A stretch of 64,000 nt of DNA from Patescibacteria group bacterium. Lineage in GTDB: Bacteria > Patescibacteriota > Microgenomatia > UBA8517. Below, piece after piece: positions 19,287 to 36,124 of the stretch (within the stretch, counting starts at the first letter, position 1; each line of letters starts with the position of its first letter). The translations under genes and the position numbers were made by a program. The stretch covers positions 318,393-382,392 of the forward strand of contig AP024680.1 in assembly GCA_025999275.1 (NCBI GenBank). Reading direction: 5' to 3'. Below the pieces are notes generated by a model. That model did not search any database and was not told the DNA's origin. It saw only the letters and a program-made list of their open reading frames with translations.

Positions 19287-19290
19287 AAAT

Positions 19291-20379
19291 ATGCCTGAAG
19301 TAAGACAAAGAGTAGAAGATGTTCAAAAAACTCTTAATGAGATTAAAAAATCTCTTAAAATTGAGGACAAAAAAACTCGACTTAAAGAGCTTGAAGCCGC
19401 TTCTCTTGATCCTGATTTTTGGAACGACCAGCAAAAGGCAAAACAAGTGATGCAGGAAATTGGCAATCTTCGTGATCTTATCGATAAGATTAAATCTTTT
19501 GAGGATGAAGTTGTTATTCTTTATGATCTAGTTAGAGAGAGCAAGGATGATGATGTTTTTGAGAAAGATGTGAGTTCTCTTGAAGAGAAGATGAAGGAGT
19601 TAAAACTAGCCTCTTTTCTTGATGGGCGTTATGATGAGAGGAATGCAATTGTTTCAATTCACGCTGGTCAAGGAGGGACGGAAGCAATGGATTGGGCCAG
19701 CATGCTTTATAGAATGTATCTTCGTTATGCAGAAAGAAAGGGTTTTAAAACAGAAACACTAGATTTAACTGAAGGTGAGGAAGCTGGGATAAAAAGTGTT
19801 ACTTTTAAAATAATAGGTCCTTATGCCTATGGATATTTAAAGGGAGAGTCAGGTACTCATCGTTTGGTTCGTCAGTCGCCTTTTAATGCAGATCATTTGA
19901 GGGAAACTTCTTTTGCTTTAGTTGGTGTTTTACCAGAAATTGGAGAAGTAGATGCTTCTGATATTAATTTTATAGATGAGGATCTTGAATGGCAGTTTTT
20001 TCGCTCTTCAAGCCAAGGAGGGCAAAATGTTCAGAAGGTTTCAACAGCGGTTAGAGTAAAACATATACCCACAGGAATAATAGTAACTTGCCAAACTCAG
20101 AGATTTCAGGAACAAAACCGTAAGATTGCTCTTGAACTATTGCGCGCCAAACTTTGGGCTCTTGAAGAAGAAAAAAAGAATAAAGAGGTCAAGGAAATAA
20201 AGGGTGAATATAGGCCTGCTTCATGGGGAAATCAGATAAGAAGTTATGTTCTTCATCCTTATAAAATGGTAAAAGACTTAAGGACTCAAGTCGAAACTTC
20301 CAATACTGAGGCTGTTTTGAATGGCGAAATAGATGATTTTATTGAGGCTGAAATAATGTCAAATTCAAGCTCTACTTGA
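19291..20379 (+). CDS. prfB: Peptide chain release factor 2
   Basis: SPF tripeptide (QSPFNADH) and the GGQ motif (SSQGGQNVQKV). The ORF is uninterrupted, with no +1 frameshift site. Confidence 0.9.
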   Translation: MPEVRQRVEDVQKTLNEIKKSLKIEDKKTRLKELEAASLDPDFWNDQQKAKQVMQEIGNLRDLIDKIKSFEDEVVILYDLVRESKDDDVFEKDVSSLEEKMKELKLASFLDGRYDERNAIVSIHAGQGGTEAMDWASMLYRMYLRYAERKGFKTETLDLTEGEEAGIKSVTFKIIGPYAYGYLKGESGTHRLVRQSPFNADHLRETSFALVGVLPEIGEVDASDINFIDEDLEWQFFRSSSQGGQNVQKVSTAVRVKHIPTGIIVTCQTQRFQEQNRKIALELLRAKLWALEEEKKNKEVKEIKGEYRPASWGNQIRSYVLHPYKMVKDLRTQVETSNTEAVLNGEIDDFIEAEIMSNSSST

Positions 20380-20411
20380 ATTTTCATTTATTGTAGTTTA
20401 AAGTCTTAAGT

Positions 20412-20897
20412 ATGGATGAGAATCAAGTTTCAATAAACCAATCAAATACTAATAACAATCAGTCGTCTGTTGAAAAACCGATGTTGGGGAAAGTTACTTC
20501 CAGTTCTTCTAAAAATTTGATTATGATTACGCTTGCAGTTTTTGTTGTTGGGATGGGAATCTTTACTGGTTGGATTATCTCAGGAGGTTTGAAAGGAAAG
20601 CCAAAAACATCAACTTCTGAAGGGCAAGTTGTCAAAACTAGTAAAGAAGCTGGGGTAAGCGACGAGAAAACTTTTAAAGATACAGCTACTGGTGTTTTGA
20701 AACAGGGAGGTGTTAATGGTGAAGGAACTCACCATTTGGAAAGAGAAGGTGGTCCTTCTCAATATGTTTATTTGACTTCTTCTGTGATTGATCTTGATTC
20801 TTTTATAGATAAAAAGGTGCAGGTTTGGGGGGAAACAATATCGGCCGCCAAAGCTGGTTGGTTTATGGATGTTGGTAAAGTCAAAGTTCTTGAGTGA
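20412..20897 (+). CDS. Hypothetical membrane-anchored protein
   Basis: Asn/Gln-rich N-terminus, one TM, then a ~100-aa exported domain. No known motif. Confidence 0.4.
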   Translation: MDENQVSINQSNTNNNQSSVEKPMLGKVTSSSSKNLIMITLAVFVVGMGIFTGWIISGGLKGKPKTSTSEGQVVKTSKEAGVSDEKTFKDTATGVLKQGGVNGEGTHHLEREGGPSQYVYLTSSVIDLDSFIDKKVQVWGETISAAKAGWFMDVGKVKVLE

Positions 20898-20915
20898 CAA
20901 GGTCCGTCCTTGTCA
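20895..20915. terminator. GC-rich palindromic hairpin, family B (TGACAAGGTCCGTCCTTGTCA)
   Basis: 8-bp stem with a 5-nt loop overlapping the TGA stop, followed by a T-rich run. The identical 21-mer recurs at 33039. Confidence 0.55.
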
Positions 20916-20963
20916 TTATTTCTCTTCTTGTTAAGCTTTCCAAAATTTAGTAATCTTAAGTTA

Positions 20964-21623
20964 ATGCTTGAAGTTGTCGATGTTAGCAAAACTTACGGTG
21001 ATATAGTGGCTTTAAATAAGATTTCTTTTAGTGCTGAGGCTGGTGAATTGGTTTTTATCACTGGAAAATCAGGATCTGGCAAGACAACTCTTCTTAAGCT
21101 AATTTTGAGGGAAATTTTTCCTGACAGTGGAAAGATTTTATTTGAGGGTAAAGATATATTTTCTCTTAAAGGCAGTGAAATTCCTTTATATAGGCAAAAG
21201 ATTGGCGTAGTGTTTCAGGATTTTAAGATTTTAACAGAGAAAACAGTACGAGAAAATGTAGAAATTGCTTTGGCTGTAGTAGGTGTTCCTTCTTCTGAAT
21301 GGAATATTCGTGTTGATGAAGTTCTAAAAATGACTGGCCTTGACAGACGAAGTGAGCTTTTTCCTCTACAACTTTCCGGAGGAGAATTGCAAAGAGTTTC
21401 TCTAGCCCGTGCCTTGGTAGTCAACCCCCAAATTATTCTTGCAGATGAGCCGACTGGCAATCTTGACTGGGAAACGTCGGAGGGTATTATGGAATTATTC
21501 AAGAAAGTGGTTGAATCAGGCAAACTGGTCTTGATGGCAACACATAATCTAGCTTTGGTAGATAAGTATTCAAAGGTTGAAAAAGGAAGTAAAATGAAAA
21601 CTAAGGTTATTAATCTTTCTTAA
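20964..21623 (+). CDS. ftsE: Cell division ATP-binding protein FtsE
   Basis: ABC ATPase with Walker A GKSGSGKTT, signature LSGGELQRV and Walker B ILADEPTGNLD. Start set at the Met at 20964 (MLEVVDVSK). Confidence 0.9.
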   Translation: MLEVVDVSKTYGDIVALNKISFSAEAGELVFITGKSGSGKTTLLKLILREIFPDSGKILFEGKDIFSLKGSEIPLYRQKIGVVFQDFKILTEKTVRENVEIALAVVGVPSSEWNIRVDEVLKMTGLDRRSELFPLQLSGGELQRVSLARALVVNPQIILADEPTGNLDWETSEGIMELFKKVVESGKLVLMATHNLALVDKYSKVEKGSKMKTKVINLS

Positions 21624-21625
21624 AA

Positions 21626-22543
21626 ATGGGAATTCATTTTAAGACAGCTATAAGAAATATAATTAGGTCTCCTTTTCAGGCTTTTGCTGCTGTTTTTGTT
21701 TTGGCAATTACTTTCTTTATTGTTAGTATACTTGTTGCTCTTCTTTACTCTTCAAGTCAAGTTTTACATTATTTTGAAACAAGGCCACAAGTTATAGCTT
21801 TTTTGAAGTCAGATGTTTCAGCCGGTGATATTTATAATCTTCAGCAAAAGTTGAGTTCTGATACTCGAGTCAAGGAGGTTCGTTATGTTTCAAAAGAAGA
21901 TGCTTTGAAAATTTACAAGGAGGCAACTTCCGAGACTCCTCTTTTAGCTGAATTAGTTAGCCCTACAGCTTTTCCTGCCAGTCTTGAATTGTCGCTTGTT
22001 AAGCTTGACTACGCTCAAGAATTAATTAGTGAGTTAAAGCAAGAGAAACTAGTTGATCAGGTTGGCTTTACTGCAAACTTGGGGGGAGAGGCAACTTTGA
22101 ACAATACCATAAACAGACTCAAATCCATAGTAAATTATTTGAGATTAGGAGGCGGAATTTTTACGGCTTTCTTGGCTGTCACTTCCCTTATGGTTCTTTT
22201 GGTGGTTATAAGTATGAGATTAATGGCAAGGAAGCAGGAGGTGGATATTCTTAATTTGATTGGTGCAACACCACTTTTTGTTGCAAGTCCTGTTATTTTA
22301 GAGGCGTTTATTTATGTTTTAGTTGGAGTTTTTATTGGTTGGCTTTTGGCTTTTGTTTTGGTTTTATATTTTGCTCCGTCTTTGATTTCTTACTTTGGGC
22401 AGATCGAAATTTTACCAAAAGATACATTTACTCTTTTTAAAATGTCGTTATTAGTTTTGTTTGCAGAATGGCTGGCTGGGTTTGTTTTGGCTTTTTTGGG
22501 GAGCTTCCTTGCAATATCTCGTTTATCCAAAAAGAAGGCCTAG
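21626..22543 (+). CDS. ftsX: Cell division permease FtsX
   Basis: Four-TM FtsX topology with a large first periplasmic loop. Immediately follows ftsE. Confidence 0.8.
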   Translation: MGIHFKTAIRNIIRSPFQAFAAVFVLAITFFIVSILVALLYSSSQVLHYFETRPQVIAFLKSDVSAGDIYNLQQKLSSDTRVKEVRYVSKEDALKIYKEATSETPLLAELVSPTAFPASLELSLVKLDYAQELISELKQEKLVDQVGFTANLGGEATLNNTINRLKSIVNYLRLGGGIFTAFLAVTSLMVLLVVISMRLMARKQEVDILNLIGATPLFVASPVILEAFIYVLVGVFIGWLLAFVLVLYFAPSLISYFGQIEILPKDTFTLFKMSLLVLFAEWLAGFVLAFLGSFLAISRLSKKKA

Positions 22544-22553
22544 TTGTTAAAAA

Positions 22554-23729
22554 ATGCGCTTGCTTTTAAAAAAATTTTTCTTTTTTGTTTTATTAATCTT
22601 TCTTTTTGTGTTTTTATTTTCTTCTTTTACTGTTAGAGCGCAAGATCAGGATATTTCTCGTGACCAAAAATTAAAGGAATTGCAAGATCAAATTGCAAAG
22701 TATGAAGAGGAATTGAGTCGTCTTCGCCAACAATCAGCAACCTTAAGCAATCAAATAGCCCAGTATGACGCTCAGATTGCCCTTGCTACTTTGCAGATTG
22801 AGGAGACACAAAGAAAAATAGAGCTTTTAGAGGGTAGGATTGGACAGCTCGAAAATTCTTTAGACGCTTTAACTAAGGCTTTCTCATCACGTGCGGCTGA
22901 GACTTACAAAATGGTTAAGCTGGGCGAGCCGATTTTGTTTTTAATCTCATCTCCTGATCTTTCAACGGCGGTTTCAAGATTTCATTATCTAAAACTTATT
23001 CAACGATATGATCAAGAGCTTTTGATTAAACTTCAAGCAACCCAAACAACATATCAAGATCAAAAAACGGATCAGGAGTCTTTACAGAAACAGCTTGAAA
23101 AGCAAAAGGCCAATCTTGATGCTCAAAAGGCAGCTAAGGCTAATTTGTTGGCAGCGAGTAAAAATGATGAGAGGTATTACCAAAGACTTTTAACTCAAGC
23201 CAGAAGTCAGCTTGCAGCTTTGAGGCGTTATGTCACAAGTCAGGGTGGAGCAACTATCTTGCAAAATCAAACCAAGTGCGATGGTTGGGGTTGCTATTAT
23301 AACCAGCGAGATAGCCAGTGGGGGACAATTGGCATAGGTGGATCTTCTTATTCAGTGGCTGAATATGGATGTCTTATTTCTTCAATTGCAATGATTAGTA
23401 GCCATTATGGCAAAAAGCTGACGCCAGGTGATATTGCTATTAATCCGAATTATTTTGTCCCCGGAACTGGTTATATTTACCACTCAGCAGAAGGAATGCC
23501 TTTTACAATTAGCACGGCTTCAGTATCACAACTTGATAGTCTTCTTTCTAAAGGCCCTGTAATTGCAGGTCTTTACTCTGGGCCTGATCATTTTATTGTT
23601 ATTTTAAGAAAAGAAGGGAACGATTATATAATGCATGATCCTTTTATGCCTGATGGGGCAAATCGCCGATTGACTGAAAAATATAAAGTTTCAGATATCA
23701 CAAGTCTAAGATTGGTAAGCTTTAATTGA
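22554..23729 (+). CDS. Coiled-coil protein with C-terminal C39-like cysteine peptidase domain (putative FtsEX-regulated peptidoglycan hydrolase, PcsB/EnvC analog)
   Basis: Signal/TM at the N-terminus, ~200 aa of heptad-rich coiled coil (LKELQDQIAKYEEELSRLRQQ), then a C-terminal domain with EYGCLISSIAMISSHYG (Cys) and GPDHFIVILRKEG (His). Position right after ftsEX supports the role. Confidence 0.6.
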   Translation: MRLLLKKFFFFVLLIFLFVFLFSSFTVRAQDQDISRDQKLKELQDQIAKYEEELSRLRQQSATLSNQIAQYDAQIALATLQIEETQRKIELLEGRIGQLENSLDALTKAFSSRAAETYKMVKLGEPILFLISSPDLSTAVSRFHYLKLIQRYDQELLIKLQATQTTYQDQKTDQESLQKQLEKQKANLDAQKAAKANLLAASKNDERYYQRLLTQARSQLAALRRYVTSQGGATILQNQTKCDGWGCYYNQRDSQWGTIGIGGSSYSVAEYGCLISSIAMISSHYGKKLTPGDIAINPNYFVPGTGYIYHSAEGMPFTISTASVSQLDSLLSKGPVIAGLYSGPDHFIVILRKEGNDYIMHDPFMPDGANRRLTEKYKVSDITSLRLVSFN

Positions 23730-23735
23730 GTCTAC

Positions 23736-23771
23736 TTCCACGCCGGGCTTGGAATAGCTTCGCAAGCCGGG
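23736..23771 (+). repeat. REP-like GC-rich imperfect palindrome, copy 1 (TTCCACGCCGGGCTTGGAATAGCTTCGCAAGCCGGG)
   Basis: Identical 36-mer to 36635..36670. Lies just after the stop of the FtsEX-associated peptidase gene. Confidence 0.7.
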
Positions 23772-23841: not shown

Positions 23842-25074
23842 ATGGCCCAAGTTTCAAAAGCTTCTAAGAATGTTTATCTAGAGATTTTGTGTACAAGTTT
23901 TATTTCGTTCCTAAAAATTAAAAAAGATAGTTTTTTCATTTCATATAAAAATTATTTTGCTCGATTCTTTATTTTTGTATTTATTTCTTTTGCTGTCTTA
24001 TTTTTGTCTTTTTCGGAAGTTGCCGCTCAAGTGGTGATTAATGAGTTTCATCCCAATTCACCTGAGTGGGTAGAATTTTACAATAGTAGTTCTGACGTCA
24101 TAAATCTTTCTGATTTTTGGTTTGATGATGACGATAATTTTGTTTCTGATATAGGTACTTCTTCTAAAAGAAGATTGTCTGGTTTATTGAGTGGTGGCGC
24201 AACTTGCTATTTGGATCTTAATAGTTATTTAAATGATAATGGAGACAAGCCAACTATTTTTAGCTTGTCGGGGGAGATAATTGATAGTTATTCTTATATA
24301 TCATCTTTAGGAGATAAAACTTACTCTAGAGATCCTGATGGTGGTGAATGGGCTTCGGCTGGTATGGATCCGACAAAATCTCTGACCAATTGTTTGTCTC
24401 TGGCCACTCCAACTCCTACTCAAACTCCCACTCCAACACCAGTTTCCACTTCATCCTCTAATTCTTCTAGTTCAAAAGCAACGGTTAAAATAAATAGTGC
24501 CAAAGATCAAAACGGAAACGAACTTTTAGGATCGTTGAAAATTTACATCGACGGAAATTATACTGGCAATTATGCTCCAGAGACTTATACATTTTGTAGT
24601 GATTGTAAGTGTGGTAGTAATAATGTCCCTTGTGGTTTTGGCAATCACACTTTTAAAGTTGAAAAGACTGGTTATAATTCTTGGACAAAAACAGCGGAAA
24701 TAAGTGCTGATAATAATTATGAATTTGATCCAGTTTTGACTTTAGTATCTTCTAGTCCTTCTCCAACTTTGAAGGCAACTCCCACCGCAACTGCTTCAGC
24801 AACGCCAAAATCAACAACTTTTAATCTTTCAACTTCTAGCGAATCAGCGCTTCTTGCTGAGGATGTTTTTTCTAATAATAAAGGGGTTTTGGGTGCTTTT
24901 TCTGAAAGCAAGACATCAACTCCTGTTCCCAACCAATCTGATTCAAAGTTTAAATTAGCAGCTCTGTTTTTTATTATTTCGGGTCTTTCTTTTTTGGGAT
25001 CGGCCGTTTATGCTTATCTAAAGAAAAAGAAAAATGCAAAACCAGATGAGTCTAAAAGTGAAGAAGCTGGTTAA
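23842..25074 (+). CDS. Lamin-tail-domain (LTD) cell-surface protein with PEGA-like domain and C-terminal membrane anchor
   Basis: VVINEFHPNSPEWVEFYNSSSDVINLSDFWFDDDD matches the LTD consensus. A TPTPT linker follows. The Cys-rich YTGNYAPETYTF...FKVEKTGYNSWTKTAEI region looks PEGA-like. C-terminal TM with a KKKK tail. Confidence 0.6.
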   Translation: MAQVSKASKNVYLEILCTSFISFLKIKKDSFFISYKNYFARFFIFVFISFAVLFLSFSEVAAQVVINEFHPNSPEWVEFYNSSSDVINLSDFWFDDDDNFVSDIGTSSKRRLSGLLSGGATCYLDLNSYLNDNGDKPTIFSLSGEIIDSYSYISSLGDKTYSRDPDGGEWASAGMDPTKSLTNCLSLATPTPTQTPTPTPVSTSSSNSSSSKATVKINSAKDQNGNELLGSLKIYIDGNYTGNYAPETYTFCSDCKCGSNNVPCGFGNHTFKVEKTGYNSWTKTAEISADNNYEFDPVLTLVSSSPSPTLKATPTATASATPKSTTFNLSTSSESALLAEDVFSNNKGVLGAFSESKTSTPVPNQSDSKFKLAALFFIISGLSFLGSAVYAYLKKKKNAKPDESKSEEAG

Positions 25075-25444
25075 ACTTTGGGCGCCGCCTGTTTTTTGGA
25101 TGGCGCTTATTTTTTTTCTTAGCTCTCGTCCTACACTCAAAACGACTCAAATTTACTGGCAGGATTTTATTATCAAAAAAACAGCTCATTTTATTGAGTA
25201 TGCAATTTTGGCTTTTCTTTATCTCCGTGGCTTTTTGGGAAGCGGTTTTCCAAAAAAGAAGTCGTTTATTTTTGCACTTGTTCTTTGTATTTTGTATGCC
25301 GCTTCTGATGAATTTCACCAGTCTTTTATTCCCGGTCGGGAGCCAAGAATAAGGGATGTGATAATTGATACCATTGGCGCTTTTTCATCTTTGTACTATT
25401 TTGTCTTTTATAGAAAAAAGCCCTTTAAGTATTTGCAATCTTAA
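25034..25444 (+). CDS. VanZ-like family membrane protein
   Basis: DEFHQSFIPGREPRIRDVIIDTIGA matches the VanZ signature. Overlaps the end of the LTD gene, and the exact start is uncertain. Confidence 0.6.
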   Translation: MQNQMSLKVKKLVKLWAPPVFWMALIFFLSSRPTLKTTQIYWQDFIIKKTAHFIEYAILAFLYLRGFLGSGFPKKKSFIFALVLCILYAASDEFHQSFIPGREPRIRDVIIDTIGAFSSLYYFVFYRKKPFKYLQS

Positions 25445-25468
25445 ATCAATCTGCACTATTATTAATTA

Positions 25469-26098
25469 ATGGCAAGGGAATCTGCTATTCAAAAAGAAAA
25501 GAAAAAGGTTTCTTCCTATCTTAATATTGCCGGTGAGGTCTTTATTCTTTTTTCAATCTTAATTTTGTTTTTCACCTATGGGCCGGTGACAAAAGAGGAG
25601 GTTTCCTATCAGATAAGACAAGTAGTTAAAAACAAAGAAGTCAAAGAAATCCAGCCTGTCAACACTCAATTTTCAATCGTTATTCCAAAACTTGAAGTTT
25701 CAGCGCCTGTATTTGCTTCTGTTGATCCTTTTAATCCAAGCGAATACTTGCCCGTCTTAAAAAAGGGAGTTGCTCATTCAAAATATTCCTCTTTTCCTGA
25801 CAGTTTTGGCAACACTTACCTTTTTGCCCATTCAACCGACGCTTTTTATAATGTTGGCAAATATAACGCTGTTTTTTATCTTCTTGGAAAATTAGAAAAG
25901 GGAGATGAGATAGATGTTTATTATAAGGACCAAAAATATGTTTATAGAGTATCTGATAAGAAAGTTGTTGAACCGAAGGACGTGTTTTATTTGGTCAATT
26001 CTGGAAAGGGAAATATTTTAACTCTTCAGACTTGCTATCCGCCAGGAACAACGTTAAAGCGTTTGATTGTTATTGCTAATCAGGAAGTTGGGATATAG
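25469..26098 (+). CDS. Sortase-family transpeptidase
   Basis: N-terminal TM, conserved His (YLFAHSTD) and the catalytic TLQTC (TLxTC) motif near the C-terminus. Confidence 0.75.
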   Translation: MARESAIQKEKKKVSSYLNIAGEVFILFSILILFFTYGPVTKEEVSYQIRQVVKNKEVKEIQPVNTQFSIVIPKLEVSAPVFASVDPFNPSEYLPVLKKGVAHSKYSSFPDSFGNTYLFAHSTDAFYNVGKYNAVFYLLGKLEKGDEIDVYYKDQKYVYRVSDKKVVEPKDVFYLVNSGKGNILTLQTCYPPGTTLKRLIVIANQEVGI

Positions 26099-26265
26099 TA
26101 AAATTGAACAGGCTTTTTTAGCTAAATATTGACTTTTCCTATAGCAAGTGTTATAAAGCATTTGGGTAGCCTAGCCTTATATAGATGCACAAAAATAAAA
26201 GACGGCTAATTGCCTTAATATCTGCCTTTTCGGTTTTAATTAACTCGCTCTCCTTTTAGTCTCCT

Positions 26266-29200
26266 TTGGTTGTTTTAGCTCAAGAAACACAGGAAGGGAC
26301 TCCTGTAGTTGAAAATCAGCCGCAACAGACAGAAACATCTACACCCCAGCCAACAGAATCAGTAGCTGAGACAAGTACTCCAAATCCTAGTGTTAGCCCT
26401 TCTTTAGAGCCAAGTCCTGCACCTAGCCTAGAGCCTTCTCCAATAAACAATCTTCAAACTGAAACCCCTACACCAACAGCAACACCAGCTCAGGAAGTTT
26501 TGGGAGCAGATACAAATACCACCACTCCTTTTCCCTCAACGCCGGCAAGCGAAGACAAGAATAAAGATGCTCATATCAATGCTGTGGTTTTAAGTGATGT
26601 TAGCGCCTCAAGTATTGATGAAGCTGATTTATCCTATCTTGAAAGTGCCACTAGCGCCACTTTGAGAACTGATAAATTTGACTATTCGCCGACTGATGCT
26701 GTTGTTATAACTGGCGAAGGATTTGCTCCAAATACCGAGTATGAATTGGTCATTACTTCTGGTACTGGTAATTTTAGATTTTCTGATCGTGTCACCTCTG
26801 ATGAATCAGGTGGGCTTTTCTATACCTATCAACTCGACGGCACCTACAGGCCGGAGTATAAGGCGGAAGTGTTTGATTTGTTGGGTGGTGTAGCTGCTTC
26901 GGTCAATTTTTCAGATAGTGATAAAGTTCGTCTTTGCCATCGTACCAAATCTGATAGTAACCCATATGTTTACTTAGAGGTGAATATTAAAAATAACGGA
27001 GATTTGAAAGGTGGCCACCTTAATCATACCGGACCAATATGGTATCCTGGCATTCAAGGCAAATGGGGAGATATTATCCCTCCCTATTCCAGTGGTAATT
27101 TTAACTACTCTGGGATGAACTGGGATGCTAATGGTCAAGCTATTTGGAACAATGGTTGTAAGTTGCAAATAGCTTGTCAAGAAGGTCCCAGTTGGACAAG
27201 TGATGTGATCTCTTTTAATCAAGGTAAGAATAAAGATGGTTCTGATGTACCAGAAGAAAGATCTGATCCCTATAATGCATTAGGAAAACCTGACAGTTTT
27301 GGTAATGATGTTAATTTTGTTAGTCTTGGTAAAGGTGGCTCCATTGTTCTGGTTTTTCTTGGATGGGTGAAAGATAAAGAAGGTAATGATCTTTCCTTCC
27401 ATGAGGTTACTTGGGGTAGAGAAAACTATCCTGAAGAGAAAGCAAAAGTAGAGGTAAGCCAAGATGGCGATAGTTGGTATGGAGATTGGATTGTAAGCAG
27501 TAAAGCTACAAATGGTATTGGTTATATTGATTTTTCTTCAACTAGGTTGTCTTGGGTAAAATATGTAAGGATTACCGATACTACAGATTTTAGTCTTCAT
27601 ACTAATGATGCTGATGGATATGATCTCGATGCGTTAGATGCGGTTTATCAGCTGTGTAGTTTACCTTCTCCTTCACCGACTTTATCTCCTTCTCCTACTC
27701 CAGCTCCTTATTGTGGAGATGGCGTCAAGAATGGTCAAGAACAATGCGATGGGTCTGATGGGGTTGGTCAAAATCAATTTTGTACCAAAAATTGCAAACT
27801 TATTCCAATTTATGATGGATTTCATTCTTGTCCCGCTGGAACGGTTAAAAGTCAAAGTCCTGTTTTATCAAAGACAATATCCGCAACCGATTCTGATGGA
27901 GAAACTTTTAACCTGACTGCTGGAGGAAAATATCTTTTTGAAGTTAGTGGTGTTTACAGCTATGATAAGAGCAATTCTGCTAAATGGGCCGATGCTGCCT
28001 ATGCTACTGACAATAATTGGTCTAGCGCTAGATCTGATATTGGTATTTGGGAAACAAATAGAGGTGTAACTTCTCTACTTGCTGATTTTGGTAAGGGGGT
28101 GGGTGTTGTTGAGTGGGATGATAATCAAGTATATAATTCTGACCATACTTATCAAAAGTATTATTCTCCAACTACCAATTCAGTTAAGTTCTTAATAAGC
28201 GATTGGTACGATGAATGGTACAGCTCGCCATATAATAATCAATCAGCAATGTCTGATAATTCTGGTAGCTTAAGTTTAGATGTTTATGAATGCCAACCTG
28301 TATCAGAAGTTACTGTCTGTAAATATGACAATGAAGAACACCCTTTGAGTGATTGGCGAGTTTATCTTTTAGGAGATAAAGTAGGAAATACTATTTCTGT
28401 TCCTTCTAATGGCACTGTAGTTAACGCTGGTTCTTATCCAAATGATAATTATGTTCTTTTGGCCTCGGGTACTTATAACTATGGGAATGATCGGATGAAT
28501 GCTGATGCGGCTAATTCTTATCGTTATGTTGGACTTCCTTGCAGTGGGCCAACTGATGGGTGGGTGAGTGGAGAGTCTTCTTGTATGGGAAATTATCTTT
28601 CTTTGAATTTTTCAACTAGCGGGGGGCCAACAGCTCCCGGATGGGGAGATTACTACAACCCCGATCATATATATGCAAAATTTTTTGCCGGCGGCGGTTT
28701 GAATTTAAAAGTTTGGGATAGGTGTAGTAGTAATCAAGTGGAAGGATGTTATGGTGATAATGAAGGATCTTTAAGTCTTGATATTTATAAAGGTTTTGTT
28801 GGCGATACAGGGGAAAATGGATGTGTAACATTTACTAACGTTCCTTATGGGGCATATCAATTAGGTGAAATTTTACAGGAAGGATGGCAGAAAGTCAGTG
28901 GTTCGGGTGAGGTAGTAATTGACAGTGATGAGGAAAATTTTGATTTAATTAATAATGAATTGCCTAAAAAAGGCAATCTAAAAGTTTCCAAAGTCGTTGA
29001 CTGGAAAAATGTTACGCCAGACACTTCTAAAACTTTTGAAATTTGTATAACAGGACCTTCTTATCCTAATCCTGATTGTAAAACAGCTGATTATGATGGT
29101 GAAACACTTGAATGGAAAGATATTTTAGCTGGTGATTATACTGTAACAGAAACCACTCCAACAGGCGGTTGGATAGTAACAGGGTCAGGTCAAACTGTAA

Positions 29201-32200
29201 CTGTTAATAAAGATCAGACTTCTTCTGTTGAAATAAAGAATGAAGCAAATTCGATTATCATTAAAGCCTATAAGGTGGTTTGTGATAGCGAGCAATATTT
29301 GCCAAACTGGGGAAACCATGGAAGCGTGATTGGCGCTAATACAGCTCAAAGTTTTGTTAATAATTCTCAAGGCCATTGCCGGCTTGAGGATGGATGGAAA
29401 TTCCAATATGCACCTAAGGGTTCTGGTAGTAATGGTGCATTTCAAACCAACACACAGGAGTTGGGAACTCCTTGGACAACTTTCGGTCCTACTGTTGGCG
29501 GCGAAGCAGTAGCTGTAATAAATGATATTTCTAATTTTGATGGTCGAATTGAAACGAGAGAAGTTTTTAAAGACAATACCTATATTCCTTTTTCAAACAG
29601 TAGTAATAATGTAAGTGCGGAATTTTACTGCACTGGTGATACGTATAATTATGACAACTGGGAGTGGATAAATAACCCGCAATACGGCAGCACCTACTAT
29701 TGTGTTGCTTTTAATGCCAAGAAAAGCACTGTAATTTCAGGGAGGAAGTTTAATGATTTAAATTACAATGGTAAAGATGATGAAGAGCCTGGCCTTGAAA
29801 ACTGGAAAATTTTGGCGGCTCAAAAGGTAGATGAAGTTAATGTTTCGGCAAAAGATATGCCAACAGTTTCTTCAAATATTCCTTTGATCTCTGGTCAAGA
29901 GTATCTTTTAAGAGTTTCCGGGACTTATCAAGCCGGAGATAATATTACAGCCGATGCAAAATACTCAGTTCGTAGCCCAAATACTTACTGGACTGATTAT
30001 GTTCAAAATTATCAATCTTATGGACCAACTCTTTTAGATTTGCAAATTAATAATAATTCTTATGACTGGGGAAGTTATAATCCAAATCATGTTTATTGGT
30101 TAATTCTTTCTGGTGGTGGTTCGCCAATTAATTTTAGGCTTAATGATATTTATCCATCAAATAATTCAGGATCTTTAAATGTTAAAATTTATAAAGTCAT
30201 TTCCGAAACAACTACCGCAAACGATGGAAGTTATCAGCTAACTTTAACCAGTGATCCTGGATCAGATATAATTGTGGCTGAAGAAACTCAAAGCGGTTAT
30301 ATGCAAATCACTCCAAATGGCGAAAATTTTGGTTACTGCAATGTCACTTCATACCAAGAAAATAAATGTAATTTCGGTAATGCTTTAGCTTATGGTTCAA
30401 TTTATGGTTATAAGTATGATGAAGATAGAGAAACTGGACTTGGTGGCTGGACTATATTTATAGATGATAATAATAATGGTATTTTGGATCAGGGTGAGAA
30501 AGACGCTACCACAAGTGATGATGAAAAAAACAATGGCTATTATGAGTTTAATGGTCTAACGGCAGGGACATATTCTGTTTGTGAGGTAGAGCAAGAAGGC
30601 TGGCAGAGGATGTATCCCCTTGGTTCTAACTGTCAATCTGTGACAATTACTTCTGGATCTAAATTTGAGGTTGATTTCCAAAACAGGAAAGTTGTTTTGG
30701 GGCTTAGTCTTACAAAGTCAAACGATGCCGCAACTGCCTTGTCTGCTGGAAGCCAAGTTAATTATACTTTAAAGATTAAAAATACAGGTAATCAGAAATT
30801 GACTGGAGTTATTATCAAAGATGCTCCTGCTGGTGGATTTACTTATGTTGATGATAGTGGCATTCTTGATAGCAATCCGATTAATCCTACTCAATTGGGG
30901 GGCTATCTTGACTGGTATATTGGAGATCTTGATGCAGGAGAGGAAAAAGTGTTGTCTTACAAGATGTCAACTAATAGTGGCATGATCTCTGGCATTTATC
31001 CAAATGTTGCCATAGCGACTGGAATTTATACACCGTCTGAATATCAACCTGAAGAGGTGGTTACAAATAGATCCTTGGTAGTTGAAGCATTGGCTGTTGA
31101 TGGTGACTCTGGGGAAGAAAGGGTTGAAAGCAATGCCGGTGTTCCCGTTAACTCTCAGGTTGAAATTAAGGCTCCTTTGGCTTACTCAACTGGAGTTGGG
31201 GGAACAGGGGGGCAAGTTTTGGGCGCATCAACTGAGGCCGGTGAAGTTTTGCCTGCTGCTGGTTCTGATAGCCGAATAGTTTTGTTTGCTCTCTTGGGTC
31301 TTATTTTGGGAGCTTTGCTTAAAGTTTCAGGATTAGCTCTAGAGAGAAACTGGGTAGATTATAGGAAATTAAAGAAAAATATTAAAAGAATGGGTAGTTT
31401 TATTGCAGTCTTGATTTTCCTTCTTGGTTTTGCCCCTTCTGCTAGGGCTTTCTCTGACTATGTTTATATAACTCAACTGCCAGCTTATCTAAACAAGGAA
31501 GATTTCAAAATTTCCTATTCCGCTCTTTCTGAAAACCCAATTTCTGCTCAGTTTTATATTAGGAAAGACGGGGATTCAAGCTGGAGGACTCTTGGTTCTT
31601 CTTTGTCTGGAGCCTCGGGATATGTGCAAGTTCATGGCGGGGATATTTACAATGGTGATGGTAAATATTTCTTCAAGGTGGTTATAAATAGCGGGTCGGC
31701 TGAAGATCAAACTTCAACCATAATTGACAGACAGTCTCCTGATCCAGTTCGTGATTATTGGAAAGAGAAGTTAGGGGATGGACATTACAAGCTTCATTGG
31801 AGAAATCCTGACAATGAGGATTTTGATAAGGTAATAATTTATCGCTCGGATAGTACCAATTTTACGGCTGATTCCTCAACTGAGATAGCCACAGTTTGGG
31901 GGTCAAGGAATTCTGAAATGACTTATGAGAATGCCGCAGTAGCAGGAAAAGAATACTATTTTGCCATTAGGGCAATTGATAAGGCGGGAAATGCATCAAG
32001 CGTTGTTGCTGATCCTGAGACACAAGTTTCAGCAGGTGCTGTGTTAGGTGAGTCAACGGTGGCAACCGGTTCTCCTAAAGCAGAGGTGGTCAAGATTTTG
32101 CCAAAAGAAGAAAAGAAGGGTGAGGTTTTAGGCGAGGAGAATAGAGAGGAGGAGCCAGTTTCTTCTCCAACACCTGAAGTTCAAGAACAATCAGGCGGTG

Positions 32201-32319
32201 TTTTGGGCCAGGCAATAAAATTTGCCAAAGATAGAACAAAAATTACTCTTCTTATCGCTCTTGGCCTTGGGATTGTTTCTTATTACCTGTCTCGTCTTTG
32301 GAAAAAGAATAAGAATTAA
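26266..32319 (+). CDS. Giant (2017-aa ORF) multi-domain surface adhesin; possibly two in-frame fused genes
   Basis: Thr/Pro-rich N-terminus, a Myxococcus-type Cys-rich repeat (CGDGVKNGQEQCDGSDG), several SdrD-B/CnaB-like Ca-binding folds (DDNNNGILDQGEKD, GTYSVCEV), a DUF11-like repeat (VNYTLKIKNTGNQKLTGVII), and a fibronectin-III-like module near the end. An internal LPAAG + hydrophobic + basic segment at 31248..31389 is followed by a second signal-peptide-like Met at 31390. The track start is TTG; an in-frame signal peptide ORF lies upstream at 26185, separated by a TAG. Confidence 0.7.
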   Translation: MVVLAQETQEGTPVVENQPQQTETSTPQPTESVAETSTPNPSVSPSLEPSPAPSLEPSPINNLQTETPTPTATPAQEVLGADTNTTTPFPSTPASEDKNKDAHINAVVLSDVSASSIDEADLSYLESATSATLRTDKFDYSPTDAVVITGEGFAPNTEYELVITSGTGNFRFSDRVTSDESGGLFYTYQLDGTYRPEYKAEVFDLLGGVAASVNFSDSDKVRLCHRTKSDSNPYVYLEVNIKNNGDLKGGHLNHTGPIWYPGIQGKWGDIIPPYSSGNFNYSGMNWDANGQAIWNNGCKLQIACQEGPSWTSDVISFNQGKNKDGSDVPEERSDPYNALGKPDSFGNDVNFVSLGKGGSIVLVFLGWVKDKEGNDLSFHEVTWGRENYPEEKAKVEVSQDGDSWYGDWIVSSKATNGIGYIDFSSTRLSWVKYVRITDTTDFSLHTNDADGYDLDALDAVYQLCSLPSPSPTLSPSPTPAPYCGDGVKNGQEQCDGSDGVGQNQFCTKNCKLIPIYDGFHSCPAGTVKSQSPVLSKTISATDSDGETFNLTAGGKYLFEVSGVYSYDKSNSAKWADAAYATDNNWSSARSDIGIWETNRGVTSLLADFGKGVGVVEWDDNQVYNSDHTYQKYYSPTTNSVKFLISDWYDEWYSSPYNNQSAMSDNSGSLSLDVYECQPVSEVTVCKYDNEEHPLSDWRVYLLGDKVGNTISVPSNGTVVNAGSYPNDNYVLLASGTYNYGNDRMNADAANSYRYVGLPCSGPTDGWVSGESSCMGNYLSLNFSTSGGPTAPGWGDYYNPDHIYAKFFAGGGLNLKVWDRCSSNQVEGCYGDNEGSLSLDIYKGFVGDTGENGCVTFTNVPYGAYQLGEILQEGWQKVSGSGEVVIDSDEENFDLINNELPKKGNLKVSKVVDWKNVTPDTSKTFEICITGPSYPNPDCKTADYDGETLEWKDILAGDYTVTETTPTGGWIVTGSGQTVTVNKDQTSSVEIKNEANSIIIKAYKVVCDSEQYLPNWGNHGSVIGANTAQSFVNNSQGHCRLEDGWKFQYAPKGSGSNGAFQTNTQELGTPWTTFGPTVGGEAVAVINDISNFDGRIETREVFKDNTYIPFSNSSNNVSAEFYCTGDTYNYDNWEWINNPQYGSTYYCVAFNAKKSTVISGRKFNDLNYNGKDDEEPGLENWKILAAQKVDEVNVSAKDMPTVSSNIPLISGQEYLLRVSGTYQAGDNITADAKYSVRSPNTYWTDYVQNYQSYGPTLLDLQINNNSYDWGSYNPNHVYWLILSGGGSPINFRLNDIYPSNNSGSLNVKIYKVISETTTANDGSYQLTLTSDPGSDIIVAEETQSGYMQITPNGENFGYCNVTSYQENKCNFGNALAYGSIYGYKYDEDRETGLGGWTIFIDDNNNGILDQGEKDATTSDDEKNNGYYEFNGLTAGTYSVCEVEQEGWQRMYPLGSNCQSVTITSGSKFEVDFQNRKVVLGLSLTKSNDAATALSAGSQVNYTLKIKNTGNQKLTGVIIKDAPAGGFTYVDDSGILDSNPINPTQLGGYLDWYIGDLDAGEEKVLSYKMSTNSGMISGIYPNVAIATGIYTPSEYQPEEVVTNRSLVVEALAVDGDSGEERVESNAGVPVNSQVEIKAPLAYSTGVGGTGGQVLGASTEAGEVLPAAGSDSRIVLFALLGLILGALLKVSGLALERNWVDYRKLKKNIKRMGSFIAVLIFLLGFAPSARAFSDYVYITQLPAYLNKEDFKISYSALSENPISAQFYIRKDGDSSWRTLGSSLSGASGYVQVHGGDIYNGDGKYFFKVVINSGSAEDQTSTIIDRQSPDPVRDYWKEKLGDGHYKLHWRNPDNEDFDKVIIYRSDSTNFTADSSTEIATVWGSRNSEMTYENAAVAGKEYYFAIRAIDKAGNASSVVADPETQVSAGAVLGESTVATGSPKAEVVKILPKEEKKGEVLGEENREEEPVSSPTPEVQEQSGGVLGQAIKFAKDRTKITLLIALGLGIVSYYLSRLWKKNKN

Positions 32320-32321
32320 GT

Positions 32322-33041
32322 TTGGTAAGAAAAAAATACAAAAGAATACTTCTTAAACTCACAGGTGAATTGTTTGGTGACAAGTTTGGTAAAGGCCTTG
32401 ATTTTGCCTCAGTTGATAGAATAGCTAGACAGATTATAAATATTCACAAAAATACCGGTCTTGAATTGGCTATTGTTGTTGGTGGTGGGAATATTTTTAG
32501 AGGAAGAGAGAGGGCATCTGATGTTGATGAGGTCACTGCTGATTATATGGGTATGCTTGCAACTGTTATTAATGGTTTGGCTTTGCAGGAGTCTTTGGAA
32601 AGACAGGGAGTTGAGACGCGAATGATGACGGCTTTTGAAATAAAAGCGGTGGCTGAGCCTTATATTAGAAGAAGAGCAATTAGGCATCTTGAGAAGGGTA
32701 GAATTGTTATTCTAACTGCAGGTGTTGGCAGTCCATTTTTTACTACAGATTCAGCTGCTGCTTTGCGTGCGGTTGAGCTTAAATGTGATATTGTTTTCAA
32801 AGCAACGGATGTTGATGGTGTGTATTCTGCAGATCCTCAAAAGGATCCCAAGGCAAAACTCTACAAGAGAATTTCTTTTGATAAGGCTCTTAAAGAGGAC
32901 TTGCAAGTTATGGATGCAACTGCTTTTGCGATTTGTCGTAAAAATAAAATGCCAATTTTTGTTTTTAATATTAAAAAACTCGATAAAATTTCCTCTATCG
33001 TTTTAGGAAAAGAGGATGTCTTTGGTACTTTAGTTGGTTGA
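32322..33041 (+). CDS. pyrH: UMP kinase
   Basis: KRILLKLTGE at the N-terminus, IVVGGGNIFRG, and DSAAALRAVE, matching the amino-acid kinase fold of PyrH. Confidence 0.9.
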   Translation: MVRKKYKRILLKLTGELFGDKFGKGLDFASVDRIARQIINIHKNTGLELAIVVGGGNIFRGRERASDVDEVTADYMGMLATVINGLALQESLERQGVETRMMTAFEIKAVAEPYIRRRAIRHLEKGRIVILTAGVGSPFFTTDSAAALRAVELKCDIVFKATDVDGVYSADPQKDPKAKLYKRISFDKALKEDLQVMDATAFAICRKNKMPIFVFNIKKLDKISSIVLGKEDVFGTLVG

Positions 33042-33059
33042 CAAGGTCCGTCCTTGTCA
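33039..33059. terminator. GC-rich palindromic hairpin, family B (bidirectional position)
   Basis: TGACAAGGTCCGTCCTTGTCA incorporates the pyrH TGA and sits between convergent pyrH and the GT-C gene. Confidence 0.55.
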
Positions 33060-34538
33060 GTTGATAATTTGATATAAAAGTAAGGAATCTGTTGGGTTTT
33101 CTTTCCATGGAGGCTTGGGAATCTCTTTTATTAAGTTTAGATTGGGATTTTGAACAAGGTTTGATTTGTGGATTACAAAATAAACAGGTTTTTCTTTAAG
33201 TTTTTCATAAACATAAGATTCGATTTGTGAGCTACTATACCAAACTTCAATATTTTTGTTTTTGCCGATATAAATCTCAAGTCCGTCAGGCAATGTTCCA
33301 AAGGCACCAGCTGTAACAACTAAAATTTTTTGATCTTTTGCTTTCTCTTTTAGAAAATTAGCCATTTCTTTTATTCCATAACCTGCTGTCCATCCTTCAA
33401 AGTACCCATCTTTTTCTTTTTTAGGTAGATTGGCTTGCCATGGTTTTGTAATAAGCTGATAATCAAAAATTATTGCTGGGATTAAGACCAGAGTGGTTAG
33501 AGTGCTAAAAACAGCCTTTCTGTTTTTGGCTATTTTTTCTGATATTTCTGCAAAAGACCAACTGGCAAGAAAGATGAATGTAACTATACTTGGTAGAATA
33601 TATCTTGCCGTGTAGGTTTTAAGAAGAGCAGTAAGTATAATGAAAGGAATAGCTCCCCAAAGGAAAATTATTATGTTTTCCTTTTTCTTTTTGTAAAGGG
33701 AGAGAAAAATTGCAAATATAAAAGTTAAGAAAACAGGCCAAGTCATCAATTTGGTAAGAAAAACAAAACCTTCTTTGGTGTTGCCTATAAATGGATCAAG
33801 TGGTTTCTCCCAGAGTCGCGATATGGGGAAATGATAATACTCATTTCTTTTTCCAAGTTGTTTGAAATAGGGGCTAATTCTAAGTGAATTGTATAGGCAC
33901 AATCCTATTATTGCTGATAAAGTAAGTCCCAAAATTGATTTTGTTAGTTTCTTTTTATTTTTAAAGTCGGCTTTTATTAAAGCTAGTGGAAGTAGAAAGA
34001 AATTAAACATTCCGGGTGTTTTGGTTAGTATTGAAGCTCCTAAGATTAGTCCTAGAAGTATTATATTTTTGGCTGACGGTTTTTCTACCGTCTCAAGAGC
34101 AAGAATTAGTGACCAAAATGAAAAAGCAGCAAGCATCGAATCGGTTAATGCCATTCGATCAAAAAATACCAAAAATGGAGTAAAGGTAAAAAATAGAGCA
34201 GCAACCAAAGCTGTTTTTGGTTGGAAATACCTTTTGGAGAGATAGTATGCTCCATAAAGTGTGAGAAGGCTTATTAAGATTGAGACTATTCTTCCTGCCA
34301 GAAGAGGATCGGATATAATTTTTAAGCTTGGCACAACCAACCACATAAATAGTGGAGTTTTACCATCGACAAGTGGAATAAATAAATTAATTTTGGGATT
34401 TTCGATGATTTTTTGCGCCCAATGGATATAGATTGCCTCATCACAAAATACTGGCTGTAGATTGAGGTTGTAGGTTCTGATCAGAAGGTAAAATGTGATG
34501 ATTAAAATGGCAGATAAAAAAAGTTTTTTGTGCTTCAT
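33057..34538 (-). CDS. GT-C-fold glycosyltransferase (ArnT/PMT family, GT39/GT83-like)
   Basis: Polytopic, with the N-terminal loop motif VFCDEAIYIHWAQKI (DE..Y) characteristic of ArnT/PMT-type lipid-linked-sugar transferases. 493 aa. Confidence 0.6.
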   Translation of the reverse strand: MKHKKLFLSAILIITFYLLIRTYNLNLQPVFCDEAIYIHWAQKIIENPKINLFIPLVDGKTPLFMWLVVPSLKIISDPLLAGRIVSILISLLTLYGAYYLSKRYFQPKTALVAALFFTFTPFLVFFDRMALTDSMLAAFSFWSLILALETVEKPSAKNIILLGLILGASILTKTPGMFNFFLLPLALIKADFKNKKKLTKSILGLTLSAIIGLCLYNSLRISPYFKQLGKRNEYYHFPISRLWEKPLDPFIGNTKEGFVFLTKLMTWPVFLTFIFAIFLSLYKKKKENIIIFLWGAIPFIILTALLKTYTARYILPSIVTFIFLASWSFAEISEKIAKNRKAVFSTLTTLVLIPAIIFDYQLITKPWQANLPKKEKDGYFEGWTAGYGIKEMANFLKEKAKDQKILVVTAGAFGTLPDGLEIYIGKNKNIEVWYSSSQIESYVYEKLKEKPVYFVIHKSNLVQNPNLNLIKEIPKPPWKENPTDSLLLYQIIN

Positions 34539-34671
34539 TTTTATAATAATACCATTTTATAAATCTGCAACCCAAAAATTTTGGGGTAAATTAGACAAGA
34601 TAGATCTGGAAATTGTGGCTATTAACTTGATATTTATTTGTAGTTTATTGACAAGGTCTGTTCTTTTCAAT

Positions 34672-34692
34672 GGACAGGGTCGGACCCTGTCC
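34672..34692. terminator. GC-rich palindromic hairpin, family A, preceded by a degenerate family B copy
   Basis: GGACAGGGTCGGACCCTGTCC at 34672. At 34649..34671, TTGACAAGGTCTGTTCTTTTCAA is a decayed B-type copy. Located between the GT-C gene start region and tRNA-Ala. Confidence 0.45.
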
Positions 34693-34698
34693 AATTTG

Positions 34699-34769
34699 TG
34701 GACTTACCGAGAATCGAACTCGGATCTCGCCCATGCGAAGGGCGCGTTTTGCCATTAAACTATAAGCCC
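34699..34769 (-). tRNA. tRNA-Ala (anticodon CGC)
   Basis: The reverse complement GGGCTTATAGTTTAATGGCAAAACGCGCCCTTCGCATGGGCGAGATCCGAGTTCGATTCTCGGTAAGTCCA folds as a cloverleaf. It has the G3:U70 Ala identity pair, an anticodon loop TTCGCAT, and a T-loop TTCGATT. No CCA is encoded. Confidence 0.8.
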
Positions 34770-34830
34770 TCTTTGGTATTATACCATTTATTGCTTGAAT
34801 TAAACCTTTTTTGAAGTTAATATTTAGATA

Positions 34831-35826
34831 ATGTCTATCTATAATTTTTTAGTTCATCTTTTTATACCTCATTATTCCAATAATCAAAAACCAAAGCTTT
34901 TACATCCTTCGACTTTGTTGGTTTTTGCTTTTATCTTGTCTTTTTTGCAGGTCTTATTGCATTTTCTTCCCAAAGCTGGAGTTCGGGTTTTGGGGTATGC
35001 GGCTAATATTTCAGTTGATGAGGTTTTGCGTTTAACAAATCAAAAAAGGCAGGAAGCAGGTTTACCTCCTCTTAAACTTGATCCGGTTTTAAATCAAGCT
35101 GCCAAAAACAAGGGGGAGGACATGCTTGCCAAAGATTATTGGGCTCATGTTTCTCCTGACGGAGTTGAACCTTGGAAGTTTTTTCTTGATGCTGGTTATA
35201 AATACCGGTATGCAGGTGAAAATTTAGCGCGTGATTTTTCAAACGCCGCTTCGGCTGTCGATGCTTGGATGGCTTCACCTTCACACCGAGAAAACCTACT
35301 TTCGCCAAAATATGAGGATGTTGGTTTGGCTGTAGTTGAGGGTGATTTGGGTGGGGTTGATACAACTATAATAGTTCAGCTTTTTGGGACAAGGTTGGCA
35401 GGGAGTGGAGAGGTTAGTCCAGTTGCTAAGAAAGAAGAGCGGACTCTATTGTCTGCAAAGGCAAAGGTTCAAGAGCAAGAAATAAAACCAACCCCTATAC
35501 CTGATGAATATAAAAAATCAGAAATTGAGCTTTCCCCGATTCCTGTGTTTGAGGTTGGTAAACCAGTAGTGCTTGAGGCGGGTAGCGCCTTGGGTGAAAA
35601 CAATTTTGCAACACCACTTCCTGCATTTTTAATTTCTCCATTTGGTTTATTTAAGAGTCTGTCTTTGTATCTAACACTGGTATTGATTCTGGTATTTACA
35701 ATTGATGCAATAATAGTATCAAGGAAGAATATTACAAGGGTCTCGGGTCGTTCTTTTGCTCATATTTCTTTTTTGGGAATGATTTTGGCAGTGATTTTAA
35801 TTCTTAGGGCAGGAAAAATATTATGA
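34831..35826 (+). CDS. CAP/SCP/PR-1-like (YkwD-type) secreted domain protein with C-terminal membrane segments
   Basis: The CAP domain reads RLTNQKRQEAGLPPLKLDPVLNQAAKNKGEDMLAKDYWAHVSPDG...ASPSHRENLLSPKYEDVGLAV. N-terminal TM, and two C-terminal TMs. Confidence 0.7.
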   Translation: MSIYNFLVHLFIPHYSNNQKPKLLHPSTLLVFAFILSFLQVLLHFLPKAGVRVLGYAANISVDEVLRLTNQKRQEAGLPPLKLDPVLNQAAKNKGEDMLAKDYWAHVSPDGVEPWKFFLDAGYKYRYAGENLARDFSNAASAVDAWMASPSHRENLLSPKYEDVGLAVVEGDLGGVDTTIIVQLFGTRLAGSGEVSPVAKKEERTLLSAKAKVQEQEIKPTPIPDEYKKSEIELSPIPVFEVGKPVVLEAGSALGENNFATPLPAFLISPFGLFKSLSLYLTLVLILVFTIDAIIVSRKNITRVSGRSFAHISFLGMILAVILILRAGKIL

Positions 35827-36080
35827 AATACAATTTAAGACATTTACCACATTATTTTGGGTTAATTGGAATTTTTATTGTAGGTATATTTGGCTTTTTA
35901 ATTTTTTCCTATGACAGAACTTTTCAGGCAGCTGTTTTGGTTTCTGTTGCGGTTTCTTATGTTGTTTGGGGAGTGATTCATCACAAAATCCACAAAGATT
36001 TTTATATTTCTGTTTTGTTTGAATATATAGCTGTAGCCATTTTGGGATTGATTATTATTTTTTCCCTACTTTTCGCCTAA
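35823..36080 (+). CDS. Small hypothetical membrane protein
   Basis: 85 aa with two or three TMs. Its start overlaps the stop of the CAP gene. Confidence 0.35.
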   Translation: MKYNLRHLPHYFGLIGIFIVGIFGFLIFSYDRTFQAAVLVSVAVSYVVWGVIHHKIHKDFYISVLFEYIAVAILGLIIIFSLLFA

Positions 36081-36124
36081 TTTAGTTTGCTTCAGAAGGC
36101 ATCTTGGTAGTATAATTTCTTTAT

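Follow-up and report, generated by a model that had tools for sequence, protein, structure and literature searches.

Premature-stop alleles are known for inlA of Listeria monocytogenes, which encodes a sortase-anchored surface adhesin; the truncations remove the C-terminal anchor, and the protein is secreted instead. In other bacteria, surface adhesins are subject to phase variation, such as opa in Neisseria and fim in Escherichia coli, with slipped-strand mispairing or invertible promoters as the switch; the pentamer repeats of opa are located in the signal-peptide region. Here we describe the gene of a giant, sortase-linked surface protein, presumably an adhesin judging from its architecture and its linkage to a sortase gene, in the genome KatS3mg088 of an uncultivated Patescibacterium. 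The window that we analyzed is a 64,000-nucleotide stretch of contig AP024680.1, and all coordinates refer to this window. The reading frame of the gene is interrupted by a TAG codon inside the signal peptide. We consider this stop to be most likely a real and very recent nonsense mutation that produced a null allele of the surface protein and, thus, a nascent pseudogene.

The frame of the giant open reading frame (ORF) opens on the forward strand at the ATG at 26185, and 24 sense codons, MHKNKRRLIALISAFSVLINSLSF, precede the TAG at 26257-26259. The DNA around the stop site reads CCTTTTAGTCTCC. Beyond the TAG the frame reads SPLVVLAQETQEG... and is open as far as the TAA at 32317-32319, while the earliest start codon past the TAG, the TTG at 26266, gives rise to the 2017-aa ORF. 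With codon 25 restored, the N-terminus has all parts of a Sec signal peptide: a basic n-region (MHKNKRR), a hydrophobic h-region (LIALISAFSVLINSLSFWSPLV), and a c-region ending in VLA before Q, 32 residues in total. Cleavage after VLA is predicted to leave the mature N-terminus QETQEGTPVVENQ.... The cleavage site was placed by the −3/−1 rule and hydrophobicity was computed on the Kyte-Doolittle scale; the 19-residue means were 1.0-1.6 for the restored N-terminus (residues 5-35) and all negative for the product started at the TTG (M-VVLAQETQEG...). With no hydrophobic stretch at its N-terminus, the product started at the TTG has no signal peptide. We see that the frame joining signal peptide and mature protein is broken at codon 25 here and is unbroken in all relatives. 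SecA is encoded in the same window (5916-8675; 100% identical to BCX14666.1).

These observations agree with the initial annotation, made from the sequence alone, on several points. It had described an ATG-initiated signal peptide cut by a TAG in the frame of the giant ORF, which direct reading confirmed, and a plausible signal-peptidase site after VLA, where the motif VLA-Q-E/D turned out to be conserved among orthologues. It had also stated that an ORF caller could restart only at the TTG, and this is where the GenBank protein BCX14686.1 starts. Its statement that the protein has no export signal without the upstream segment is matched by the negative hydrophobicity means.

The meaning of the TAG depends on the genetic code of this organism. 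In the window, 56 stop-free stretches reach 150 codons or more; their terminators are TAA in 25 cases, TGA in 17, and TAG in 14. Genes ending in TAG include the FKBP gene (end at 15537), ftsX (end at 22543), and the sortase gene directly upstream of the giant ORF (end at 26098), and the sortase has the same length as its orthologues. Since all three stops terminate long ORFs, the code is the standard bacterial one, with TAG a genuine terminator, as had been proposed earlier from the FKBP gene and ftsX. An alternative code with TAG reassigned was rejected, as TAG terminates a quarter of the genes (14 of the 56 long ORFs). The gene of release factor 1 is not located within the 64-kb window. As a separate observation, prfB (release factor 2; 19291-20379) is a single uninterrupted ORF matching its model from end to end; therefore, this copy does without the programmed +1 frameshift common to prfB genes of many bacteria.

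Comparison with relatives revealed the ancestral state of the codon. The position equivalent to the TAG is occupied by TGG (tryptophan) in all five close relatives, which we designate L001, L073, L074, L041, and L042. With TAG present in the window alone, the lesion is a derived single G-to-A transition in a conserved tryptophan codon. On the Logan contig L001, which is fully syntenic with the window (LTD, VanZ, sortase, adhesin, pyrH, and PMT genes), the orthologous protein P0001 begins MNKNKRRLIALISAFSVLINSLSFWSPLIVLAQETQ and has 80% amino acid identity over the aligned part; in the DNA alignment, L001 reads TTTTGGTCTCC where the window reads TTTTAGTCTCC. The 90% cluster of the sortase provided two further close relatives. 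The sortase gene of L073 is 98.6% identical to that of the window at the nucleotide level, and the 70 nt upstream of the ATG are identical; the sortase of L074 is 97.9% identical. Protein-alignment scans of metagenome contigs produced L041 and L042 (≈60% identity), both of which begin MNKSKRRLIALISAFSILINSISFWSPLLVLAQET, as well as L043 (58% identity), with a shorter signal peptide ending in YVLA before QD. In the more distant L002, the signal peptide ends in A-F-A before Q-E. In all, the signal-peptide pattern is conserved in seven orthologues; the orthologue lengths vary from 1689 to 1938 aa.

When the restored N-terminal half (1022 aa) served as query for a homology search, P0001 (80%) and P0002 (47%) were, among the matches listed, the only proteins covering more than 70% of it; this search omitted BCX14686.1, itself a cluster representative of the collection, so that a protein missing from the list is not necessarily absent. 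Strict exact-pattern scans of genome and metagenome contigs for the signal-peptide DNA gave no match, the pattern being too strict for L041 and L042.

The comparison also bears on the choice of the start codon. One could suppose that the TTG at 26266, or a codon after it, is the true start and that the stretch from the upstream ATG to the TAG is a coincidental ORF. The GenBank coding sequence (CDS) does begin at this TTG. However, all the orthologues start at the upstream ATG and carry the signal peptide, in contrast to the downstream starts without a signal peptide that the initial annotation had named as the outcome that would overturn its reading. Moreover, the substitutions in the 72 nt before the TAG are almost all synonymous: the two differences between the window and L073 are both synonymous, and so are five of the six changed codons between the window and L001. 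Therefore, this segment evolved as coding sequence. A promoter-like box found by eye and by its conservation precedes the ATG; it reads TTGACT...TATAAA in L001, L073, and L074, and TTGACA...TATAAT in L041, L042, and L043, at a similar short distance from the ATG. The box, TTGAC(T/A)-17-TATAA(A/T), probably acts as a promoter, given its sequence and conservation. A scanner for the sigma-70 consensus called no promoter, because it accepts only T as the sixth base of the second hexamer. Finally, the TTG-started product would have no export signal though it is built of domains of extracellular type. The TTG as true start is thus refuted by the orthologue comparison, and we assign next to no probability to this possibility; the CDS in GenBank is an artefact of the ORF caller.

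Next to the conservation of the signal peptide, the state of the remaining part of the gene is informative with respect to the age of the lesion. No further stops or frameshifts are present across the 2017 codons. In a branch test on the regions orthologous in the window, L001, L041, and L042, with L041 and L042 as outgroup, the private changes of the window were 46 non-synonymous and 71 synonymous, compared to 43 and 68 for the intact L001 (Fisher p = 1). A second test, on the N-terminal 720 alignment columns with L001 and L074 as outgroup, gave 76 non-synonymous and 87 synonymous changes for the window and 37 and 31 for L073, with no non-synonymous excess in the window. The pairwise dN/dS of the adhesin was 0.16 (1309 codons), compared to 0.08-0.13 for VanZ, sortase, and pyrH. 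Thus, the rest of the ≈6-kb gene is intact and under the same purifying selection as the intact orthologue. Without decay elsewhere in the gene, the stop must be very young relative to the divergence of the strains; the alternatives are a TAG that does not exist in the organism or continued selection on the gene.

Of the explanations offered by the initial annotation, a recent nonsense pseudogene is the one best supported, with TGG ancestral in five of five relatives and no decay in the rest of the gene. The events would be as follows. The ancestral gene would be transcribed from the promoter-like box and translated from the ATG at 26185, and its 32-residue Sec signal peptide would direct export, to be cut off after VLA. 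The G-to-A change at 26258 would then turn Trp25 (TGG) into TAG, and, TAG being an ordinary stop for this organism, ribosomes would release a 24-residue peptide there. Any product initiated at the TTG would have neither the n-region nor the h-region and would not be exported, leaving the passenger of ≈1,660 residues in the cytoplasm. The allele would be null for surface display, and too little time would have passed since the mutation for the rest of the gene to decay. The adhesin has probably lost both export and function.

This explanation requires that the TAG be present in the organism and not just in the assembly. KatS3mg088 (AP024680) is a circular, finished metagenome-assembled genome of 785,860 bp from hot-spring sediment at 52 °C, annotated by DFAST/Prodigal and classified as Patescibacteria; Microgenomatia; o__GWA2-44-7; f__UBA8517; g__Ch104c, or Candidatus Woesebacteria by SILVA (PMC9671151). 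It was assembled by metaFlye 2.8.3 from PacBio high-fidelity (HiFi) reads above Q20 at 9.6x coverage (PMC9671151). Logan contigs of the run DRR290133 (L070-L072), which we infer to belong to the same DDBJ submission as the source assembly, are 100% identical to the window at 12554-23765, 24787-25708, and 26473-36663 (≈22 kb). Given this identity to an independent assembly, the consensus is accurate where it could be compared.

Several points weigh against a real null allele. No retrieved contig of DRR290133 covers 25709-26472, the 764 bp that include the TAG, and the stop, therefore, has no second witness; the fragmentation of that assembly is probably due to the ≈10x coverage, and putative truncated sortase products beginning at 25679 or 25712 had no match on record. 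The coverage behind the consensus itself is only ≈10x. A lone lesion in an otherwise conserved gene is also what one would expect from a base error or from a minority haplotype picked by the assembler. Furthermore, as far as the sequence alone can tell, the UAG may be subject to low-level natural readthrough.

Accordingly, one may suppose that the TAG was introduced by an error in base calling or in the consensus, or comes from a minority haplotype, and that the dominant population has TGG and an intact, exported adhesin. Such a reading would account for a gene that is otherwise flawless and under purifying selection, and for TGG in every relative, at a site absent from the retrieved contigs and with coverage of merely 9.6x. 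On the other hand, the consensus was made from ≈10 molecules read above Q20, and residual errors of HiFi reads are mainly homopolymer indels rather than G-to-A substitutions. A consensus substitution error is improbable with such data, and the comparable 22 kb show no discrepancy. A systematic error linked to a sequence motif is not supported either. Restoring TGG creates a BsaI-type site, GGTCTC, and we rejected an artefact or restriction avoidance at this motif: the window has 7 such sites, compared to 13.5 ± 3.6 expected, which is not significant, while AGTCTC was found 23 times, compared to 21.8 expected. A generally error-prone assembly was rejected as well, as a search for same-frame split genes in the window returned only ordinary adjacent gene pairs. 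For the pair 20397-20897/20898-21623, for example, two distinct genes are called in L072; the members of the pair 37218-38189/38190-39206 match different Pfam families. We conclude that the TAG is probably a real allele. The sequencing error that the initial annotation had listed among its options is possible in principle; as the error would have to be a substitution and the consensus comes from HiFi reads at 9.6x, we regard it as unlikely, though not so unlikely as to be dismissed, and the same holds for a minority haplotype.

With a real TAG, the gene could still be expressed, either by readthrough of the UAG or its suppression by a near-cognate or suppressor tRNA, with full-length protein made at a low level, or by a reversible TAG/TGG change serving as an on/off switch in the population. 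The downstream ORF, intact for 2017 codons, would fit continued expression. Most of the other observations speak against it. The TAG is absent from every relative, with a stop at the homologous codon in none of the five close ones, and hence this is not a programmed recoding site; as noted, one gene in four ends in TAG. The 64-kb window encodes just two tRNAs, tRNA-Ala(CGC) and tRNA-Glu(CTC), neither of which has a CUA anticodon. The RNA at and after the stop (26245-26340, 96 nt) folds no better than shuffled sequences (z = −0.72). The base following the TAG is U, and in E. coli U after a stop makes a strong termination context. As to the frequent reversion that a switch would need, no simple-sequence tract, invertible element, or meaningful inverted repeat was present in 25400-27000, and the repeat search gave just short chance matches. 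The earlier suggestion of readthrough or of a phase-variation-like switch, therefore, found no support: repeats are absent, the folding score is not significant, and no relative shares the TAG. We find continued expression very hard to credit.

One relative shows a disruption of its own. In L043 (FWWL01013930.1), the signal peptide is intact and a single nucleotide is lost after TCTGG near codon 205 (L043:1360-1380); the ORF in frame 1 ends at 1432, and frame 0 runs on for 1734 codons. Two explanations are open to this deletion: an independent early disruption, the second in this gene family, or a mistake of the assembly in a run of G. In the former case it would fit recurrent on/off variation of the adhesin; however, the loss directly follows two G, and the assembly may be at fault. 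A broader idea is that early-truncation alleles arise independently time and again, and that in these host-dependent Patescibacteria they serve to turn off, repeatedly, a giant sortase-linked adhesin that recombines; populations would then be heterogeneous for the on and off states under selection, and not by neutral accident. The sole support for this idea is the 1-nt loss in L043, and we hold it to be rather doubtful. If true, switching could be, for example, an escape from phage that use the protein as a receptor or a way of detaching from the host.

The features of the locus are listed in Table 1. The giant protein consists, in order, of a Pro/Thr-rich linker, conserved N-terminal domains, a Cys-rich repeat, beta-sandwich domains of SpaA/SdrD-B type, and a DUF11 domain (Pfam E-values of 7.3e-12 for SpaA and 2.7e-10 for DUF11); judging by these matches, its domains are building blocks of extracellular type.

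Table 1. Coordinates of the giant surface protein gene, its signal-peptide region, and the adjacent genes.
Feature	Position in window	Strand	Description
LTD/PEGA-domain protein	23842-25074		Exact match to BCX14683.1
VanZ-like protein	25034-25444		Exact match to BCX14684.1
Sortase	25469-26098	+	209 aa, ends in TAG; exact match to BCX14685.1; Pfam PF04203, E = 4.9e-24; directly upstream of the adhesin gene
Promoter-like box	26129-26157	+	TTGACT-17 nt-TATAAA, 27 nt upstream of the ATG; found by eye and conservation
Start codon and first 24 signal-peptide codons	26185-26256	+	n-region MHKNKRR and most of the h-region; identical or near-identical peptides open P0001/L001, L073, L074, L041, and L042
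In-frame TAG	26257-26259	+	Ancestral TGG (Trp25), G to A at 26258; DNA alignment with L001 and TGG in five of five close relatives
Remainder of signal peptide, SPLVVLA	26260-26280	+	Predicted signal-peptidase I site after Ala32, between 26280 and 26281, then QETQ
Giant ORF as in GenBank	26266-32319	+	2017 aa from TTG; exact match to BCX14686.1, "hypothetical protein KatS3mg088_369"
Internal sorting-signal-like element	31249-31389	+	LPAAG (31249-31263), hydrophobic segment of 24 residues (31270-31341), basic patch ERNWVDYRKLKKNIKR (31342-31389)
C-terminal module, same frame	31390-32316	+	Signal-peptide-like MGSFIAVLIFLLGFAPSARA (31390-31449, putative cut before FS), conserved domain of ≈250 aa, acidic linker, membrane segment (32242-32301), KKNKN tail
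pyrH	32322-33041		3′ of the giant ORF
PMT-family glycosyltransferase	33057-34538	−	Downstream of the adhesin gene, beyond pyrH

The link between the sortase and the giant protein is seen in gene order. The two genes are adjacent in L001, L002, L073, and L074, and the DNA upstream of the gene in L041-L044 encodes a sortase C-terminus. The sortase scored 55.8 against the NCBIfam model sortase_fam (cut-off 39.35), with no class model reaching its own cut-off, and its dN/dS against L001 was 0.10. VanZ, sortase, pyrH, and PMT are all intact, with lengths equal to those of the L001 orthologues.

With regard to anchoring, the sorting-signal-like element is internal. It spans residues 1662-1708 of 2017, is followed by ≈310 further residues, and its motif is without threonine. 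The element is conserved in L001, L074, L041, and L042, while L002 has LGAATG instead. The models of LPXTG anchors in NCBIfam and Pfam had no match in the giant protein, which is thus a candidate rather than an established member of the canonical LPXTG family of sortase substrates. The C-terminal module that follows is kept in all full-length orthologues. We observed that this arrangement of LPAAG followed by a second signal-peptide-like segment (ORF residues 1662-2017; P0001, P0002, L041, L042, and L074) is conserved down to 47% identity. If the adjacent sortase cut at LPAAG, one gene could yield a wall-linked passenger and a separate membrane-anchored module.

Besides its unusual C-terminus, the adhesin is a mosaic of domains (window 26185-32319 compared to L001, L041, L042, L073, and L074). 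In alignment columns ≈700-1450, the window protein is 70-100% identical to L041, L042, and L073 and unrelated to L001, which is its closest relative elsewhere. A Cys-rich/DWYDEWY segment is common to the window and L001 and is absent from L041. The N-terminal ≈600 residues are 76-91% identical even to L073, despite 98.6-100% identity of the L073 sortase and upstream DNA. Such a pattern points to recombination or cassette exchange combined with fast evolution.

The window also carries a surface-glycan cluster (37251-49896) with rmlA-like, rmlB-like, GT2, and C-methyltransferase genes and three tandem paralogues of the PMT_2 family. The paralogues have lengths of 515, 548, and 545 aa; one has TPR repeats and the third has no Pfam match. 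The GC content falls to 28-30% at 42-50 kb, compared to ≈36% elsewhere in the window, suggesting a strain-variable or acquired island. One may speculate that the Pro/Thr-rich linkers of the adhesin are targets of O-glycosylation. Over the 64-kb window, the GC skew was positive in almost every 2-kb bin, the cumulative skew reached 4.9, and nearly all genes were on the forward strand; a pronounced disparity between the strands has been reported for some of the other complete genomes of Microgenomates (PMC7143001).

The lesion is invisible in the public annotation. Predictions of the secretome or of host attachment would score the largest surface protein of this genome as cytoplasmic, and we recommend marking BCX14686.1 as a pseudogene unless the reads disagree with the consensus, in which case the codon should be corrected to TGG and the start moved to the upstream ATG. 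The allele suggests a very recent loss of the largest sortase-linked adhesin from this population or, at the minimum, from the genotype that was assembled. As the organism is presumed to live attached to other cells, the loss is of some mild interest, although events of this kind are common.

We can now place the locus among the systems known from other bacteria. It resembles inlA of L. monocytogenes in that a single-base nonsense mutation affects a large sortase-associated adhesin in some lineages only, while the rest of the gene is intact and relatives keep the sense codon. The difference is in the position of the stop: at codon 25 of the signal peptide it would leave nothing to be exported, compared to the secreted products of the inlA alleles. 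The organism also differs, as this one is an uncultivated Patescibacterium with the allele seen in one genome only. With opa and fim, the locus shares a surface adhesin that a small alteration close to the 5′ end turns on or off; unlike in these systems, there are no repeat tract and no inverted repeats around the site, and a point substitution reverts at the basal mutation rate only. An in-frame UAG inside a long ORF is likewise a property of programmed UAG recoding (pyrrolysine, reassigned or read-through stops), from which the locus differs in having tryptophan in the orthologues, TAG as a frequent terminator, no structure downstream of the stop, and no tRNA-CUA in the window. The closest likeness is to nascent pseudogenes mis-annotated by callers of the Prodigal type: BCX14686.1 starts at the first start codon past an internal stop, as such genes do, and we see no difference of substance. 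The case is a new instance of a familiar event, an ordinary knock-out or, less probably, a base error, with no new mechanism.

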